Assembly (NCBI GenBank): GCA_028699255.1
Contig: JAQVUX010000003.1
Coordinates: 146,654-210,653 of the forward strand
From: Candidatus Omnitrophota bacterium
GTDB taxonomy: Bacteria; Omnitrophota; Gorgyraeia; 2-01-FULL-45-10
DNA: 64,000 bases
Direction: 5' to 3'
Positions within the stretch are counted from its first letter, which is position 1. Every line of letters begins with the position of its first letter. Positions 17,241-62,262 of this stretch are shown here, piece after piece. The position numbers were made by a program, and so were the translations under genes. The notes below the pieces were generated by a model. That model searched no databases. It saw nothing but the letters and a program-made list of their open reading frames with translations, and was not told where the DNA came from.

Positions 17241-17995
17241 ACCTTCGGGATAGAGCAAAGAAGATATTATATCTGCTTGAAGCCGCGTACGGCCGTCCCG
17301 CGCTGTTTGTCAAAGACGAGCCCGTGGATGTTCTTGTGCGCACGATATTGTCGCAAAATACGTCGGACAAAAACTCTGTCCCGGCTTTTAACGCGCTCAA
17401 AAAACATTTCGTGTCGTGGGAGAGGGCGCTTTGCGCGCCGGTACCGGAGATAACAGAGATAATAAAACATGCGGGCCTGGCGAATATAAAAGCGCGCAGG
17501 ATAAAAGCGGTTCTCGCGGAGATAAAAAAGCGCGAAGGCAGGATTGACTTGGCCGGTCTTGACCGTTTAGACGATGAAGGCGCGGGTGAATACCTCGAAT
17601 CGCTGGGCGGGGTGGGGCCGAAGACGGCCTCGTGCGTCCTTTTGTTCGCGTTCGATAGGCCCGTAATGCCGGTTGATACGCATATTTTCCGGGTGGCTAA
17701 ACGGTTGTCCCTTATAGGCGCCGGTACGGACATAAAACAGGCGCATAAAGCGTTGACAAAAATTATTCCAAAGGACTTGATATACGCCTTCCATTTATGT
17801 ATAATAGTGCACGGTCGCAGGACCTGCAAATCGCAAACCCCAAAGTGCGGGGTTTGTGTTGTTTATGGCCTTTGTGGATATGAAAAGAAATCCGTCATTG
17901 CGAGCGAAGCGAAGCAATCTAAAAACGAGATTGCTTCGGATTCGCCTGCCTTCGGCAGTCAGCCGCATCCTCGCAATGACGATGAAAGCGAGTAA
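17237..17995 (+). CDS. nth: Endonuclease III-family HhH-GPD DNA glycosylase with a [4Fe-4S] loop; the C-terminal ~35 aa are encoded by an inserted palindromic repeat
   Basis: HhH-GPD motifs (LVRTILSQNTSD, GVG.KTA) and a C-x6-C-x2-C-x5-C cluster (CKSQTPKCGVCVVYGLC). The tail VIASEAKQSKNEIASDS... coincides with the repeat at 17892-17981. Confidence 0.75.
   Translation: MNLRDRAKKILYLLEAAYGRPALFVKDEPVDVLVRTILSQNTSDKNSVPAFNALKKHFVSWERALCAPVPEITEIIKHAGLANIKARRIKAVLAEIKKREGRIDLAGLDRLDDEGAGEYLESLGGVGPKTASCVLLFAFDRPVMPVDTHIFRVAKRLSLIGAGTDIKQAHKALTKIIPKDLIYAFHLCIIVHGRRTCKSQTPKCGVCVVYGLCGYEKKSVIASEAKQSKNEIASDSPAFGSQPHPRNDDESE
17892..17981. repeat. Nested palindromic repeat, full copy: CGTCATTGCGAG-GAAGCAATCT-loop-AGATTGCTTC-CTCGCAATGACG
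   Basis: Seen directly. The outer inverted repeat is cgtcattgcgag/ctcgcaatgacg and the inner one is gaagcaatct/agattgcttcg. Related copies occur at 62181-62262, 24107-24145, 35085-35117 and 13845-13895. Confidence 0.8.
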
Positions 17996-22320: not shown

Positions 22321-22328
22321 TATTATAC

Positions 22329-22353
22329 AACCTACGCGGTTACCGCGTAGGTT
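22329..22353. repeat. Perfect palindrome AACCTACGCGGTTACCGCGTAGGTT, a member of the TAACCGCGTAGGTTA family
   Basis: Seen directly, 4 nt upstream of the truA start. Related pairs occur at 28362-28414 and 52075-52126. Confidence 0.7.
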
Positions 22354-22356
22354 GAC

Positions 22357-23100
22357 ATGGTTACTATGCGTAATATCAAACTCACCATCCGTTACGATGG
22401 TACCCGCTATGCTGGCTGGCAATCGCAGACGAACGGCCTTGCCATCCAGGATGTCATCCAGGACGCTATCGCTAAGATAACCGGCGCCCGTCCCTCGCTT
22501 ATAGGCTCGGGCCGTACCGACGCGGGCGTCCATGCCGAAGCCCAGGTCGCCAATTTCAGGACACGCTCGAAGATACCGCTCAAGAATCTTGTGATGGCCC
22601 TTAACACCAATCTTCCCAAAGATATCGCGATAACCGCCGCGGAAGAGGTCGCGTTGAAATTCAATGCCCAGAAAAACGCGCGCTCGAAACTCTATCGTTA
22701 TACGATAATGAATAACGATTATATGGATCCGCTCGTCCGGCATTTCGCGGCAAAGTGTTACTACAAGCTCGATCTGCGTCTTATGCGCCGCGCCGCCCGG
22801 CATATCGTAGGCAGACATGACTTTCGTTCGTTCAGGGCTACGGGCGGTACCGATGGTAATGCCGTCAGGACGGTGAAGTACATTGAAATTGAAAAAGCGG
22901 GGGACATGGTGTATATTTACATAGAAGCGAACGGTTTTCTCTATAATATGGTGCGTAATATCGTCGGTACCATTATTGAAGCCGGCCGGGGCAAGATATC
23001 GGCCGATAGCGTCAAAGAGATCATCCGTAAACGCGATATAAGATTTTCCGGGCCTACCATGCCTGGCAAGGGGCTATGCATGGTTAAGGTGCGGTATTAA
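22357..23100 (+). CDS. truA: tRNA pseudouridine(38-40) synthase
   Basis: IRYDGTRYAGWQSQ, GSGRTDAGVHA (catalytic Asp), FLYNMVRNIVG. Confidence 0.9.
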   Translation: MVTMRNIKLTIRYDGTRYAGWQSQTNGLAIQDVIQDAIAKITGARPSLIGSGRTDAGVHAEAQVANFRTRSKIPLKNLVMALNTNLPKDIAITAAEEVALKFNAQKNARSKLYRYTIMNNDYMDPLVRHFAAKCYYKLDLRLMRRAARHIVGRHDFRSFRATGGTDGNAVRTVKYIEIEKAGDMVYIYIEANGFLYNMVRNIVGTIIEAGRGKISADSVKEIIRKRDIRFSGPTMPGKGLCMVKVRY

Positions 23101-24106: not shown

Positions 24107-24145
24107 CCGTCATTGCGAGCGAGGCGAAGCCGAGCGAAGCAATCT
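24107..24145. repeat. Half-copy of the nested palindromic repeat (CCGTCATTGCGAGCGAGGCGAAGCCGAGCGAAGCAATCT)
   Basis: Seen directly. It lies 20 nt upstream of the start of the large ORF and abuts its RBS (aagagggg). Confidence 0.7.
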
Positions 24146-46845: not shown

Positions 46846-46890
46846 AGCAAGACGTAGCGCACCCTCAAGGGTGCGCTACGTCATTTTTTA
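46846..46890 (+). terminator. Rho-independent terminator (gtagcgcaccct-caa-gggtgcgctac plus a T-run)
   Basis: Seen directly after the small basic protein gene. Confidence 0.7.
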
Positions 46891-46917
46891 TGGTAATAAG
46901 TCCGATATTAAAATATA

Positions 46918-49725
46918 ATGGAACACATGGAAAAGAACTTTATTCTCATAAAAGGCGCCAGGGAGCATAATCTAAAAAATATAGATATTACCATACCCAG
47001 GGACAAGCTTGTAGTTGTGACCGGGCTATCCGGCTCCGGGAAATCGTCGCTCGCTTTCGACACCATATATGCCGAAGGCCAGCGCAGATACGTCGAGTCC
47101 CTTTCGAGTTACGCGCGTCAATTCTTAGATCAGCTCCAGAAGCCGGACGTCGATTACATCGACGGGCTTTCTCCCGCCATCAGTATCGAACAGAGGACGG
47201 CCGGCTCCAATCCCAGATCCACCGTAGGAACGCAAACGGAGATACATGATTATCTGCGCCTTCTGTATGCCAGCGTCGGGACACCTCACTGCCCGAAGTG
47301 CGGGAAAGCTATAACCAGACAGTCGGCGCAGGAGATAGTCGACCAGGTGCTCAAAGCCGCCGCCGGTGAAGAGTCGATACTTGTACTCGCCCCGCTCATA
47401 CGCGGCCGAAAAGGCGAATACAGGGAGTTGTTTAAAAAAGCGAGCGCCGACGGATTTGTCCGGGTAAGAGTGGACGGTAAAGTTTGCGAACTTGCCAACG
47501 CCATAAAATTGGACAAAAATAAAAAGCATGATATCGAAGTAGTTGTCGATCGTCTGGTAATAAAAGAGAATGTTAAAAAACGGCTTACCGATTCCATAGA
47601 ATCCGCCCTCGAGGCCGGAGGCGGCCTTGTGATAGTTAATTTTCAAAAACACAATACGAGCCACGACGTCCTTTTCAACGAACACTATGCCTGCGCCGAT
47701 TGCGGCATCAGCCTGGAAGAATTGACGCCGAGAATATTTTCATTCAATTCGCCGTATGGCGCCTGCCCGGAATGCGACGGGCTCGGTAACAAGATGGAGA
47801 TAGACCCGGATCTCGTTATAACCGATAAGACGAAGCCGGTTATCGATTCCGTCGATGCCTGGAGGCGCGGCGGGAAGGGGCTCTATCTTTATTACAGGCG
47901 GCTTATGCGTTCGCTCGCCCAGGAACACGGCTTCGACGTCCAGACGCCCTTTAAGGATCTTCCTAAAGATATTAAAAAATTAGTGCTTTACGGGGAAGGT
48001 AAAGGAAAAGGGTGGGGCGTATATGAAGGAGTCATACCTAACCTGGAAAGGCGGTTCCGCGAGACGGAAAGCGAATTCATAAAGACTGAAATCGGCAAAT
48101 ATATGTCCGTCCTGCCATGCCCTGTTTGCAACGGGAATAAACTGAAGCCCGAATCTCTCTCTGTCACGGTAGGCGGCAGGAATATCGCCGAGGTTTCCGC
48201 CATGGCGATAAAGGGACTGCGAACATTTATCGCGGGGCTTGATCTGACTCCGACGCAGGAGAATATAGCGCGTCAGGTGCTGAAGGAGATATCCTCGCGC
48301 CTGCAATTCATGATAGACGTTGGCCTCGACTACCTTACGCTCGACCGGCGCAGTTATACATTATCCGGCGGTGAGGCCCAGCGCATACGGCTTGCTACAC
48401 AGATAGGCTCCGGACTGGTTGGAGTCATCTATATCCTCGATGAGCCGAGCATAGGCTTACACCAGCGGGACAATTCGAAGCTTCTCGATACTCTTATTAA
48501 ATTGCGCGATCTCGGTAATACTCTCATCGTGGTTGAGCACGACGAGGCGACCATCCGGAAGGCCGACCACATAATCGATCTCGGCCCGGGCGCCGGTGAG
48601 CACGGCGGCCGCGTGATAGCGGAAGGTGGACTTAAGGACATACTCGCATCGAAAGACTCTCTCACGGGGAAATATCTGCGCGGTGAGTACCGGATAAATG
48701 CTCCATCCGGGCGGCGCAAGCCCGATAAGAAAAAGATACTGCGCATAATCGGCGCGCGGGAACACAACCTGAAGACTATAGATGTGGAGATACCGCTGGG
48801 CCTGTTCGTATGCGTAACGGGCGTGTCGGGTTCCGGCAAGAGCACACTTGTGGATGACATCCTGTATAAAACGCTGGCCAAAAAATTCTACCATTCCAAG
48901 GAACGGCCCGGAGAACATAAAAGGATAGAAGGCATACAGTTCATAGATAAGGTTGTTGTCATCGACCAGTCGCCCATCGGCAGGACGCCTCGCTCCAATC
49001 CCGCTACATACACGGGCGCGTTCTCATTCGTCAGGGATCTATTCTCTAAACTTCCGGAATCTAAGATACGGGGGTACAAACCGGGCCGTTTCAGTTTCAA
49101 CGTCAAGGGCGGCAGGTGTGAAGCGTGCATGGGCGACGGCATAAGAAAGATAGAAATGCACTTTCTGCCGGATATATACGTCCAATGTGAAGTATGTAAG
49201 GGCAAACGTTTCAACGCACAGACGCTCGAAGTGAAATTTAAGGGCAAATCGATCGCGGATGTCCTCGATACATCCATTGAGGAAGCGATGGAGCTTTTCG
49301 CGAACATCCCTTCGGTTAAAAATAAACTTAAAACCCTTAACGAGGTGGGCTTAGGTTATGTGCGCCTGGGGCAGTCGGCCACGACCCTTTCCGGCGGAGA
49401 AGCGCAGAGGATAAAGCTTGCCACCGAGCTGTCGAAGTCGGCGACGGGCAGGACCTTCTATATACTCGACGAGCCCACGACAGGGCTCCACTTTGCGGAC
49501 ATAGACAAATTGTTGTCCGTATTGCAGGCGCTTGTGCGCGGCGGCAATACGGTGCTGGTCATAGAGCATAATCTCGATGTGATAAAAACCTCCGACTACA
49601 TCATTGACCTCGGCCCGGAGGGCGGCGACGAAGGCGGGAGAGTAGTTGCGAGCGGTTCGCCCGAGGAAATAGCGAATAATGAGAGATCATATACCGGGCA
49701 GTATCTGAAGGAAACGTTGTGCTAA
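46918..49725 (+). CDS. uvrA: Excinuclease ABC subunit A
   Basis: Two ABC modules (GLSGSGKSS / LSGGEAQR; GVSGSGKST / LSGGEAQR) plus zinc-finger Cys clusters. Confidence 0.95.
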
Positions 49726-54133: not shown

Positions 54134-54406
54134 ATGGAAGAGAAGAAGAGCGCGCGTGACGATGAACAGGTTCCCATAGTTGCTCCTTTAAAGGTGTTGG
54201 GCCAGAAGACGATAAACAAACGGTTCGGATGGTGGTCCGCGGTCGTCCTTCTGGAGAGTTACGGCAGGAAACAGGTGTGTTTCTACCTGTGGCAGAAGAA
54301 GGAAGACGGCGGTTGGAAGCGCAAGCAGAAGTTTGCGGTGCATAATCAGGAAGACTGGGAGCTGATCCAGAACGCCGTGGTTGGAATGATCGGCGAATTG
54401 ACCTGA
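54134..54406 (+). CDS. Hypothetical protein (90 aa)
   Basis: ORF with RBS ggaggt; no recognisable motif. Confidence 0.35.
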   Translation: MEEKKSARDDEQVPIVAPLKVLGQKTINKRFGWWSAVVLLESYGRKQVCFYLWQKKEDGGWKRKQKFAVHNQEDWELIQNAVVGMIGELT

Positions 54407-54454
54407 TGAAGTTTCAACGCAATCCGCCTTTTCTCGATCTCTTACCCCCGCCTT

Positions 54455-54799
54455 ATGGCAAATCGTAAAACTATTATGAGCCGAGATTTTTGCATAATCC
54501 TGGCGCAATGCGCCTCACAAAAAGAAGCGGATGCCATCCGGTCTGCGTTGTTAAAGGGCCGGTTAGCGGCGTGCGTTAATATATTGAAAGGTGTTGATTC
54601 GAGATTTTGGTGGAATGGCAAGGTCGACAGGGCGAAGGAAGTCCTTCTGATGGCCAAGTCTCGTAGGACAAATTTTAACCGGATAGCCAAAGAAATAAAA
54701 CGCCTGCATAGTTATGATGTTCCCGAGATAATTGCTATCCCGATAATAGCGGGAAGCGGGGATTATTTGGGATGGATCAGGAAGAATACGAAGGCGTGA
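54455..54799 (+). CDS. cutA: Divalent-cation tolerance protein CutA
   Basis: CutA1 features (CVNIL.GV.S.FWW.G, YDVPEIIAIPII.GSGDYL.W). Start is the ATG at 54455 or 54476. Confidence 0.7.
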   Translation: MANRKTIMSRDFCIILAQCASQKEADAIRSALLKGRLAACVNILKGVDSRFWWNGKVDRAKEVLLMAKSRRTNFNRIAKEIKRLHSYDVPEIIAIPIIAGSGDYLGWIRKNTKA

Positions 54800-54921
54800 G
54801 GCGAAAATTTCGGAGGTTGATTGATGTTCCGAAAGCACTCTATTTAATCTTACTTAAATCAGAGATTTAAGTAAGATTGTTGTTTCGATTTCGATGCGAA
54901 AATTTCAAGAGAAATTTTCAG

Positions 54922-54997
54922 GGGGCAGTAGCTCAGCTGGGAGAGCACCACGTTCGCAACGTGGGGGTCGTGGGTTCGAATCCCATCTGCTCCACCA
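54922..54997 (+). tRNA. tRNA-Ala (anticodon CGC)
   Basis: Folded by hand: acceptor GGGGCAG/CUGCUCC with the G3:U70 Ala identity pair, D-arm GCUC-AGCUGGGA-GAGC, anticodon stem CCACG/CGUGG, loop UUCGCAA, T-arm GUGGG-UUCGAAU-CCCAU, and an encoded CCA. Confidence 0.9.
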
Positions 54998-55360
54998 TAC
55001 TCTGAAAACTTTTCGAAGAAAGTTTTCAGGTCCTGGCGTTTCAGATACTTCGATTTTGCTATGCAAAATCGAAGGACTCAGTAAACTTTTCGAAGAAGAT
55101 TTTCAGGTCCTGGCGTTTAAGATATACCGATTTTTCTCTGAAAAATCGGTATACTCAAAACTTCTTGAAAGGAAATTTTAAGGGCCTGGGGTTTGATAAG
55201 TTTCGATTTTTTCTCTGAAAAAATCGAAGTACTCTGAAAATCTGTCGAAGAAGATTTTCAGGTCCTGGCGTTTAAGATACTTCGATTTTCCTCCGGAAAA
55301 TCGAAGGACTCAGTAAACTTTTCGAAGAAGATTTTCAGGTCCTGGAGTCTAAGGACTCAA
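54998..55360. repeat. Tandem array of five ~80 bp repeats, each containing the hairpin CGATTTT-N8-AAAATCG and the conserved GATTTTCAGGTCCTGGCGTTTAAGATAC block; repeat-like sequence continues upstream of the tRNA at 54840-54921
   Basis: Seen directly. Unit starts are near 54998, 55078, 55158, 55238 and 55312, and the last unit is truncated at the 55368 gene start. Sequence just 5' of the tRNA (ttcgatttcgatgcgaaaatttcaagagaaattttcaggggg) mimics a unit. Confidence 0.75.
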
Positions 55361-55367
55361 AAAAACT

Positions 55368-56846
55368 ATGAAATTGTTTTTTGTATTAGCGCTTTTGTTC
55401 CTCACTTCAACCGTTTTTGCCGAAGATATGAAAAAATCCGACCTTGCAGGCACATGGTACCCGGCGGATAAGGCAGAACTGGCCGACTTGCTCGGCTCAT
55501 ACCTTGATTCCGCGAAACCGATAAAGATAGAGGGCCAGGTACTGGCCATTATTTCTCCTCATGCCGGTTATCAATTTTCCGGCCCTGTGGCGGCTTACGG
55601 TTTTAAGGTCGTGAATGCCGGTAGTATTAAAACGGTTATCGTTATAGGGTTCAGCCATCGAAGGCGTTTCGACGGGATATCGGTTTACGCTAAAGGCGGA
55701 TGGAGCACGCCGCTCGGCGACATAGCTATCGACGAGAAACTTGCCGCGCAGATAGTTTCGAAAAATAAACGTTTGCGTTTTGAGCCGGGGCTTTTCGATG
55801 AAGAGAACTCCGTCGAGATGCAGATGCCGTTTATAGAACTTGCCTTTAAAGGTGCGCGGGTAGTGCCGGTAGCTTTCGGTACGCAGGATTACGGCGACGC
55901 TGAGATATTGGCCGACGCGCTTGCCACCGTCCTCAAGGATAGGAACGATGTGCTCATAGTCGCCTCCACGGACCTTTCGCATTTCCATCCTTACCAGGAC
56001 GCAAATGCCATCGATAAAAATCTTATAAAGATATTGGAAGAGATGAAGGCGAGAAAACTTTACGATGCGGCCATCATGGGAGAATGCGAACTTTGCGGTA
56101 TGATGCCTGTTACGGCGACACTTCTTACGGCGGAAAAACTCGGCGTCGGCGATATCGAGGTATTGAAATACGCCAATTCCGGGGATACCTTTGGCGATAA
56201 GAAGCAGGTTGTCGGATATTTAAGCGCGGCAATCTATAAAAAAGGAACGCGGGATACGGATAACGGGCAGAGGCAGGCCGGGAAGACTATGTTGAACGAC
56301 GCCCAGCGCAAGCGGCTATTACAGATAGCGCGAGAGTCGATAATCGGCTATGTGAAGAACGGCAAGCGGATGGAGTTTGCGGAGGATGACCCGGTTCTTA
56401 ATAAAGAGATGGGCGCGTTCGTTACATTGCATGAAGGCGGCCAGTTGCGCGGGTGCATCGGTAATATGTCAGGCCAGGGGGCTTTGTATAAAACGGTGGC
56501 GGATATGGCGATAGAGGCGGCAACGGGCGATCCTCGTTTTCCCACCCTGACCGCGGCTGAGATAGGCAGGATCAAGATAGAAATATCTGCGCTGTCGCCT
56601 TTAAAAAAGGTTGCGGGCTATAAAGATGTAAAAATACCCGGCGACGGCGTTGTGGTAAAATCGGGATCCCGCAGCGGTGTATTCCTGCCGCAGGTGGCGG
56701 ATGAGACCGGATGGGGCAGGGACGAGTTTCTCTCGTATCTTTGCGCTCATAAAGCGGGTTTGCCGCCGTCTGCCTGGAAAGATCCGAAGACGGAGATTTA
56801 CGTGTTTTCTGCGGAAGTTTTTGGAGAAAAGGAGGATGGGCGATGA
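55368..56846 (+). CDS. Fusion protein: N-terminal signal peptide + Memo-like domain (AmmeMemoRadiSam system protein B) + AMMECR1 domain (system protein A)
   Basis: MKLFFVLALLFLTSTVFA signal-like segment. Memo motifs AGTWYP, SPHAGYQFSG and DLSHFH. AMMECR1 hallmark GAFVTLHEGGQLRGCIG. Confidence 0.7.
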   Translation: MKLFFVLALLFLTSTVFAEDMKKSDLAGTWYPADKAELADLLGSYLDSAKPIKIEGQVLAIISPHAGYQFSGPVAAYGFKVVNAGSIKTVIVIGFSHRRRFDGISVYAKGGWSTPLGDIAIDEKLAAQIVSKNKRLRFEPGLFDEENSVEMQMPFIELAFKGARVVPVAFGTQDYGDAEILADALATVLKDRNDVLIVASTDLSHFHPYQDANAIDKNLIKILEEMKARKLYDAAIMGECELCGMMPVTATLLTAEKLGVGDIEVLKYANSGDTFGDKKQVVGYLSAAIYKKGTRDTDNGQRQAGKTMLNDAQRKRLLQIARESIIGYVKNGKRMEFAEDDPVLNKEMGAFVTLHEGGQLRGCIGNMSGQGALYKTVADMAIEAATGDPRFPTLTAAEIGRIKIEISALSPLKKVAGYKDVKIPGDGVVVKSGSRSGVFLPQVADETGWGRDEFLSYLCAHKAGLPPSAWKDPKTEIYVFSAEVFGEKEDGR

Positions 56847-62180: not shown

Positions 62181-62262
62181 CCGTCATTGCGAGGAGCCGA
62201 AGGCGACGAAGCAATCTCTAAAACGAGATTGCTTCGCCCCTAAAAGGGCTCGCAATGACGTA
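62181..62262. repeat. Full copy of the nested palindromic repeat (CCGTCATTGCGAG-...GAAGCAATCTCTAAAACGAGATTGCTTCG...-CTCGCAATGACG)
   Basis: Seen directly in the fabF-acd spacer. It has the same architecture as the copy at 17892-17981. Confidence 0.8.

Follow-up and report, generated by a model that had tools for sequence, protein, structure and literature searches.

A locus-specific, hairpin-rich minisatellite beside a tRNA-Ala gene in an Omnitrophota bacterium

When a tRNA gene is directly followed by a series of tandem, hairpin-forming units, the question arises what kind of element these units represent and whether they serve any purpose of their own. This is the situation in a stretch of 64,000 nucleotides from a Candidatus Omnitrophota bacterium (GenBank assembly GCA_028699255.1, contig JAQVUX010000003.1, positions 146,654 to 210,653 of the forward strand; hereafter 'the window', with coordinates counted from its first letter unless another contig is named), in which tRNA-Ala(CGC) and the array behind it lie between a cutA-like gene and a memo operon. 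An initial annotation, made from the letters alone, had proposed reiterated att-site remnants, an array of promoters or small RNAs, or a tRNA-associated satellite. The present analysis shows the array to be a young, locus-specific minisatellite of two palindromes, which evolves by gain and loss of whole units while its palindromes are kept perfect. It is probably best read as a passive, structured and near-neutral spacer within the transcribed region between cutA and memo in one Omnitrophota species.

The array was delimited by Tandem Repeats Finder (TRF) at 54999-55353, with a period of 77, 4.6 copies, 75% matches and a score of 403, the next-best array in the window scoring at most 54. ARAGORN places tRNA-Ala(CGC), the sole tRNA in the window, at 54922..54997 on the + strand (with G3:U70, an encoded CCA and 67.4 bits for the Rfam tRNA model), and the array, starting at 54999, abuts its 3′ end on the same strand. 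The array thus directly follows the tRNA and runs to the next gene start, as had been described. Some details of that description need to be adjusted, namely that the period is 77-78 bp and not 78-81, and that the five tandem units are in fact four full units and a truncated one lacking the hairpin that was first noticed, which together reach the memo ATG. Each unit is laid out as CTC, hairpin A, AGG-TCCTGGCGTTTAAGATA, hairpin B and (G/T)A, with a linker of 20 nt between the two palindromes. Hairpin A, which the initial annotation did not describe, has a stem of ~10-11 bp (e.g. CTGAAAACTTT-tcgaag-AAAGTTTTCAG) and straddles the unit borders, while hairpin B is a palindrome of 12-14 perfectly matched bp around a loop of 3 nt (e.g. 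CTTCGATTTTCC-tcc-GGAAAATCGAAG). The motif CGATTTT-N8-AAAATCG reported for the latter is present, but its spacer is N9 in U3, the third unit, and N7 in three others; the N7 form has 3 matches in the window against 0.09 expected. The same junction, ..(G/T)A followed by CTC, is found after the tRNA and after every unit.

The units, all on the + strand, are 65-94% identical to one another. U1 (55000..55076) carries hairpin A at 55002-55029 (11 bp), the linker AGGTCCTGGCGTTTCAGATA and hairpin B at 55048-55074 (12 bp, loop TAT), and folds at -30.6 kcal/mol (z = -5.6). U2 (55077..55153) has an imperfect hairpin A with 3 mismatches and a hairpin B at 55123-55153 (14 bp, loop TCT) whose base is changed on both arms relative to U1 and U4. 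U3 (55154..55231) is the most diverged, with at most 72% identity to any other unit, and its hairpin B at 55202-55228 consists of 12 bp plus a U·G, with one extra T-A pair. U4 (55232..55308), 87% identical to U1, has hairpin A at 55234-55261 (10 bp) and hairpin B at 55280-55306 (12 bp, loop TCC), and the truncated U5 (55309..55367), 94% identical to U2 over the shared part, has lost hairpin B by deletion and ends in AAGGACTCAAAAAAACT right before the ATG at 55368. The conserved block that had been ascribed to every unit is exact in U2 (to ...AAGATA) and in U4, but it has 1-2 changes in U1 and is strongly diverged in U3; with at most 1 mismatch it matches at 55023, 55100 and 55255, where 0 matches are expected by chance. 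Single units fold at -18 to -31 kcal/mol, the region 54840-55375 folds much more stably than shuffled sequences do (z = -9.2), and about half of the window's distinct perfect hairpins of at least 10 bp are located in 54846-55306.

The most informative property of these units is the way in which their hairpins vary. In hairpin B, columns 4-16 are paired in all four units that possess it, no pair is broken in any copy, and four columns (4, 5, 6 and 15) have changed on both sides, with the states C-G/T-A/T·G, T-A/A-T, T-A/C-G and G-C/T-A/C-G. U1 and U4 differ at three stem pairs, two of hairpin A and one of hairpin B, and each of these substitutions is compensated in the opposite arm; the remaining changes fall in loops or linker. 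Palindromy also holds where the sequence varies between units, both at the stem top (GC/GC, TC/GA, CC/GG) and at the stem base (CTT/AAG versus TAC/GTA), and therefore the maintained property is base pairing and not a sequence read by a protein. Hairpin A is perfect in U1, U4 and a copy upstream of the tRNA, with 2-3 mismatches in U2, U3 and U5; in U2 and U5 it looks chimeric, with a 5′ arm of the U1 type joined to a 3′ arm of the U4 type. Since hairpin B shows no broken pair in any copy together with four columns changed on both sides, its structure is preserved, whether through selection on RNA (or DNA) hairpins or through palindrome-templated repair. More specifically, the compensatory changes may reflect selection on RNA stems, and may equally reflect hairpin-templated DNA repair by quasipalindrome template switching. 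In quasipalindrome correction at replication, which is established in Escherichia coli, a mutation in one arm is transferred to the opposite arm in one step. Stems that are perfect up to a 3-nt loop fit a DNA-level process somewhat better, whereas the few T·G wobbles would fit an RNA of the + strand.

That the array is a genuine feature of the genome, and a polymorphic one, is seen from independent assemblies. Logan assembly L018 matches the window without differences and, as is to be expected at k = 31, breaks off within the array; contig L045 from ENA confirms the 5′ flank; and the JGI metagenome contig Ga0172381_10174804 (L027) carries the same locus with 5 single-nucleotide polymorphisms (SNPs) in ~1.5 kb of memo. 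Because these three sources give the same sequence (L045 for the 5′ flank), the array is not an assembly artefact, and U5 is identical in L018 and L027. L027 lacks 78-79 nt, exactly one unit, and its junction joins the 5′ part of U3 to hairpin B of U4; the stretch that is gone runs from hairpin B of U3 to hairpin B of U4 (~55202-55280), which places the crossover inside hairpin B. Neither form can be an assembler collapse or duplication, because U3 and U4 share only ~9-10 nt at the junction and hairpin A of U4 is unique. This is a genuine copy-number polymorphism, produced by recombination in unit register. An older event is recorded in a higher-order pattern, in which U1 pairs with U4 and U2 with U5, U3 stands apart, and a 124-nt block is repeated at 90% identity with a spacing of 232 (repeat-finder family D1); these observations together point to an earlier duplication of three units. 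With its imperfect head-to-tail units, within the range of 10-100 bp, and a strain difference in whole units, the array shows the traits of minisatellites and variable number tandem repeats (VNTRs).

Repeat architecture is not confined to the 3′ side of the tRNA. The suggestion that the 5′ flank looks like the start of a unit whose remainder is replaced by the tRNA is borne out, as a degenerate unit at 54880..54921 (+ strand; families D2 and D6) consists of GTTTCGATTT and a copy of hairpin A, then AG, then the tRNA, which sits in the slot held by the linker and hairpin B in other units. This degenerate unit folds at -10.9 kcal/mol; its hairpin-A copy is GAAAATTTC-aaga-GAAATTTTC (54898-54919), GTTTCGATTT ahead of that copy is identical to the 5′ arm of hairpin B in U3 (family D6), and the flank ends in ..TTTTCAG, abutting the tRNA; the whole degenerate unit is identical in the independent contig L045. 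Further upstream, at 54846..54878 (+ strand; inverted repeat I5), a palindrome pairs perfectly over 15 bp around a 3-nt loop, with GTTGTTT after it; it is terminator-like and may represent the hairpin of a unit that is older and has diverged. Finally, GAGGCGAAAATTTC at 54798..54811 (+ strand) matches 54893-54906 in 13/14 positions at a spacing of 95 (family D5), which shows that the repeat architecture extends to the cutA stop codon. Since the hairpin-A copy, GTTTCGATTT, the 15-bp palindrome and the direct repeat all lie 5′ of the tRNA, the tRNA is embedded in a repeat architecture that fills the entire cutA-memo spacer.

How far does the unit extend beyond this locus? In the 64 kb window, no copies were found outside the array by a scan allowing up to 3 mismatches, by the hairpin motif or by an nhmmer profile. 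The exact 19-mer TTTTCAGGTCCTGGCGTTT gave 15 single matches in 185,579 species-representative genomes, all coincidental and without flanking similarity, and 21 matches in JGI metagenomes, one of them real (L027, the same locus); a gapped pattern of the unit gave 0 matches in viral contigs. The many scattered copies that define a dispersed repeat family were thus found neither in the window nor, by exact 19-mer, in the species genomes and the metagenome of the same population. The notion of a tRNA-associated satellite holds in so far as this is a minisatellite at one locus with copy-number polymorphism, but not as a family tied to tRNAs in general. Likewise, the neutral alternative that had been formulated, namely a local expansion absent elsewhere and not conserved in relatives, is largely what these searches show, except that the hairpins are structurally maintained.

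Other palindromes occur in the window. A dispersed nested-palindrome element (cgtcattgcgag ... CGAAGCAATCT-loop-AGATTGCTTCG ... ctcgcaatgacg) is found at 17893-17981, 24108-24119 and 62182-62260; its 12-mer has 6 matches with at most 1 mismatch against 0.3 expected, and it looks REP/MITE-like and is unrelated to the 77-bp unit. A variant of it (tgtcattctgagg...gaagaatc) flanks the tRNA in one relative (L001, 3558-3570 and 3930-3965). At 22328-22354 there is a perfect 12-bp palindrome with a 3-nt loop (CAACCTACGCGG-tta-CCGCGTAGGTTG), preceded by TATATAATATTATA and ending 2 nt ahead of the ATG of the gene at 22357, which may be a hairpin of the 5′ untranslated region or an operator. Another gene, of 935 aa, begins with the ATG at 46918. 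The sequence before it (46851-46918) contains a G+C-rich terminator hairpin of 14 bp with a T-run and, downstream of that hairpin, TATAAT only 7 nt from the ATG, an arrangement which suggests that the mRNA of this gene could be leaderless or nearly so.

The genes around the array are all on the + strand. Upstream is the cutA-like gene (54455..54799, + strand; Pfam CutA1, E = 1.5e-32), which occupies the same position in the relatives L002, L040, L042 and L043, and downstream is a fusion of Memo and AMMECR1 (AmmeMemoRadiSam B/A; Pfam; 55368..56846, + strand), whose 492-aa protein is 100% identical to an NCBI protein encoded on a 219-kb contig of a Candidatus Omnitrophica metagenome-assembled genome. 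According to Pfam, the neighbours in the window are ExbB, ExbD, DUF2582 and CutA on one side, and Memo/AMMECR1, RsmE-like and MiaB-like proteins on the other. The memo start codon lies in the loop of a small A/T hairpin (AAAAAACTAT / ATTGTTTTTT, 90% complementary, 55360-55382) that loosely resembles hairpin A (CTC-A-run-C...GAA...G-T-run); this resemblance, which is without statistical support, hints that hairpin A may derive from the memo gene's own 5′ end. The sequence AAGGA in the last unit starts at -17 of memo, compared with GGAG or AGGA at -8 to -13 of other genes in the window, and is doubtful as the memo ribosome-binding site.

The history of the locus was traced by comparing it with the same locus from six Omnitrophota (L001, L002 and L040-L043), whose Memo proteins are 67-75% identical. 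In all six, tRNA-Ala(CGC) is directly upstream of memo/AMMECR1, and in five (L002, L040-L043) cutA is upstream of the tRNA, L001 being without a called cutA. The order cutA - tRNA-Ala(CGC) - memo - 308-aa gene - rsmE-like - miaB-like recurs in the same five, and further downstream the relatives match the window in the ~308-aa gene, the RsmE-like methyltransferase, the MiaB-like radical-SAM enzyme and FabG. Because six relatives keep the tRNA and the gene order, the tRNA is ancestral at this locus and no island or integrase was inserted. The tRNA of the window is 100% identical to that of L043 and 92-93% identical to those of L002 and L040. The 77-bp unit was not found in the spacers of the six relatives by blastn-short or nhmmer, the tRNA being all that aligns.

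What does vary among the relatives is the spacer between tRNA and memo. It is 14 nt long in L002 and ~20 nt in L040, with no further content in either; ~150 nt in L042 and ~230 nt in L001, which have a structured 38-nt block in common; ~250 nt of unrelated sequence in L043; and ~310 nt in L041, where it contains an exact second copy of the tRNA 3′ end as well as a tandem duplication of its own. In this last case, the 23 nt at 1171-1193 recur exactly at 1331-1353, 160 nt downstream, as an att-like, putative scar of integration or excision, and at 1407-1495, right before the memo ATG, a 46-bp segment is perfectly duplicated in tandem (x 1.9), with no relation to the 77-bp unit. The tRNA-memo spacer is therefore a hotspot for insertion and duplication in this lineage, and the 77-bp array is one species-specific outcome of it.

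Two further features of these relatives deserve a mention. The block in common to L001 (3828-3865) and L042 (1401-1438), CCGCCrGACTTAAA..AGCGGsCTAATCGsCCAAAT, is 84% identical between the two and lies downstream of tRNA-Ala within a longer stem-rich segment, which is followed by a perfect terminator-like hairpin; it has no Rfam match and may be a conserved small RNA or leader. A tRNA-Ala(CGC) allele with an unusual D-arm (GTAGTAAAGTGGGATTAC) is present in L001 (3699-3772), L041 (1118-1191) and L042 (1277-1350); the ends of the Rfam tmRNA model give it 43-45 bits, slightly short of the gathering score of 47, and ARAGORN calls it a normal tRNA-Ala. There is also a weak match to permuted tmRNA (28 bits) at 1164-1397 of L041.

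Several simple identities for the array can be set aside. It is not coding, given that periods of 77 and 78 shift the frame between units and that the only open reading frame (54894-55181) crosses the tRNA. It is not a CRISPR array, given that the entire 77-bp period repeats with no unique spacers and that the Rfam CRISPR-DR model scores 17.9 bits against a gathering score of 42. In a permissive scan of Rfam only the tRNA passes, with RT-6, HPnc0260, PreQ1 and permuted-tmRNA far below gathering (E at least 0.06). Lastly, the units are not decayed copies of the tRNA, as their local alignment to it is not significant in comparison with shuffled sequences.

The reading that we favour, that of a near-neutral minisatellite in a transcribed spacer, can be put as follows. 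The array would have grown around the ancestral tRNA-Ala(CGC) gene and would be transcribed together with it and the memo operon. Co-transcription is suggested because all genes are on the + strand, because neither a terminator nor a promoter consensus is found between tRNA and memo, and because in L002 and L040 the tRNA abuts both of its neighbours, leaving no room for such signals. No intrinsic terminator was called within 54999-55353, the only terminator-like site on the + strand of 54400-55500 being the one at 54845-54879, upstream of the tRNA. Once the tRNA is cut out, the memo-operon mRNA would be left with a leader of ~370 nt bearing up to nine stable stem-loops. Such a leader would most likely act passively as a structured spacer, perhaps by hindering nucleases or by letting the tRNA and the mRNA have separate fates. 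Because one unit is dispensable in the sister strain and relatives do without the array entirely, the element may be near-neutral, and it is probably not a dedicated device.

Several points weigh against this reading or limit it. A specific function, for instance as a protein- or RNA-binding module, could lie behind the perfect hairpin B and the linker TTTTCAGGTCCTGGCGTTTAAGATA, which is strongly conserved in U1, U2 and U4; a neutral spacer would not require conservation of this kind. Hairpin A is imperfect in 3/6 copies, so that structure is only partly maintained. At a strain divergence of 0.33%, the absence of SNPs from the L027 array is uninformative on constraint. The uniqueness of the unit within its genome refers to the 64 kb window and to one metagenome from the same population, the latter by exact 19-mer only. 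Furthermore, the transcription of the array with its neighbours, and any effect on memo mRNA, are what we infer from the arrangement of the genes.

In the chief rival to this reading, the units would be functional RNA modules that are transcribed behind the tRNA and cut at the hairpin-A borders by RNase P, Z, E or III, giving either discrete double-hairpin RNAs or one multivalent RNA that would bind or sponge a protein, by analogy with RttR, which in E. coli is cut from the repeats that follow tyrT-tyrV. This is an unlikely explanation, though one with several observations in its favour. The tRNA occupies the slot of linker and hairpin B, with a copy of hairpin A on each side and the same junction after it as after every unit, and hairpin B is kept intact by changes on both sides. 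The wobbles (5′ T opposite 3′ G, in hairpin B of U3 and hairpin A of U2 and U5) are tolerated only in RNA of the + strand, the region folds far more stably than shuffled sequence, and E. coli offers the precedent of a tandem array that abuts a tRNA and contains an annotated small RNA. Functional small RNAs, however, usually persist beyond one species, whereas the unit is conserved in none of the relatives, no second locus was found, and no Rfam match rises above noise. Half of the copies of hairpin A, where processing is proposed to take place, are degenerate; pairing that stays perfect up to a 3-nt loop is seen more in DNA palindromes than in RNA hairpins under selection; and the sister strain manages with one unit fewer. 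A bolder form of this idea appears to us quite improbable. In it, a single precursor would have equivalent cargo slots for the tRNA and for each of the five units, with hairpin-A processing sites between the slots, and would give ~77-nt or multivalent RNAs that act in trans with a dosage set by repeat number; such RNAs might, for instance, sponge a protein or have a regulatory role linked to the AmmeMemoRadiSam operon, and the locus would then be a young, species-specific, tRNA-linked small-RNA array.

Binding of a protein to the DNA itself has less to commend it, and we give it little credence. The units would here be operators, or loading sites for a centromere or nucleoid protein, which regulate the memo operon or organise the DNA. 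It is true that each direct repeat carries a dyad-symmetric site with the invariant core CGATTTT...AAAATCG, that a linker block is conserved and that the array runs up to the point where the downstream operon starts to be translated. But palindromy is equally perfect at the variable top and base of the stem, which speaks for base pairing and not for protein read-out, the spacer of the core half-sites varies between N7 and N9, and no partition or regulator gene specific to this genome lies nearby, the same neighbours being present in relatives that have no array.

The initial annotation had considered an array of promoters. It is very improbable that the units are tandem promoters, or elements similar to UP elements, that raise or tune memo-operon transcription by their copy number. 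The strain difference in copy number, the end of the TRF array 15 nt before the ATG and, by eye, a TAAGAT hexamer in each linker that keeps A2 and T6 of a -10 box are compatible with it. Against this, sigma-70-like sites number 0 in 54400-55500, where 1.7 are expected from shuffled sequences; visual inspection shows no acceptable -35 box 16-18 nt upstream of TAAGAT, no TG extension and, in the CCTGGCG..N..ATAC block, no -12 GC of sigma-54; and TAAGAT is lost in the last unit, the nearest to the gene. The least credible explanation, that of att-site scars reiterated by repeated integration and excision at the tRNA 3′ end, is a reasonable idea for this spot, given that tRNA 3′ ends are classic integration sites, that the spacer is hypervariable among relatives and that L041 carries its 23-nt duplicate, but it does not explain the array, in which the units show no significant local alignment to the tRNA (p = 0.33-0.52), no tRNA 3′ segment recurs downstream by repeat finding or blastn, no TCCACCA-type segment is found in the units, no integrase adjoins the tRNA, flanking synteny is unbroken with the same neighbours in six relatives, and a unit-like copy that an att scar would leave unexplained also lies 5′ of the tRNA.

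Among known systems, the closest in arrangement is the tyrT-tyrV locus of E. coli, where a tandem array likewise lies at a tRNA 3′ end, on the same strand and within the transcription unit of the tRNA. In the record of E. coli K-12, TRF finds a 178-bp unit repeated 3.1 times (95% identity) in an array that extends over the 3′ end of tyrV and contains the annotated rttR and tpr. The units of that locus each begin with the last ~19 nt of the tRNA, and the overlap of the K-12 array with the tRNA end is consistent with this. The Omnitrophota units, in contrast, contain no tRNA sequence, measure 77 nt, consist of two palindromes and have a unit-like copy before the tRNA as well, and in sequence the two arrays are not homologous. 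Bacterial minisatellites and VNTRs such as the mycobacterial MIRUs (46-101 bp) are alike in being head-to-tail units in a spacer between co-oriented genes, and the strain differences in whole units and the higher-order duplication are VNTR-like too. MIRUs form a dispersed family that occupies many loci in each genome, whereas the 77-bp unit is found at one locus only and is dominated by two perfect palindromes. REP/BIME elements, the pneumococcal BOX with its tandem boxB, and Correia or MITE-like elements are also short, hairpin-forming, non-coding intergenic units, sometimes in tandem. Dispersed palindromic repeats of this sort are usually transcribed within neighbouring mRNAs, and their families are defined by many scattered copies; the unit described here is not dispersed. 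The sopC centromere of the F plasmid, made of tandem 43-bp units each with an inverted repeat, resembles it as a set of direct repeats with a dyad in each, but the present array stands in a chromosomal housekeeping context with no partition genes, and its palindromes vary while pairing is kept. A search of the literature on tRNA-adjacent tandem repeats in bacteria or in Omnitrophota returned nothing relevant. The array is thus a fresh example of a bacterial intergenic minisatellite or VNTR, hairpin-rich and tRNA-adjacent, and not a new system.

The main value of the analysis is a corrected interpretation, in which the array is neither an integration scar nor a new mobile or defence system. If the units were truly processed RNAs, they would be a second, independent case of a repeat that trails a tRNA and yields small RNAs, after rtT of E. 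coli. For this uncultured population the array can be used as a strain marker of the VNTR type. More generally, it is a natural example of palindromes kept perfect by changes on both sides among paralogous copies, and as such could help to separate selection on RNA from hairpin-templated DNA repair.

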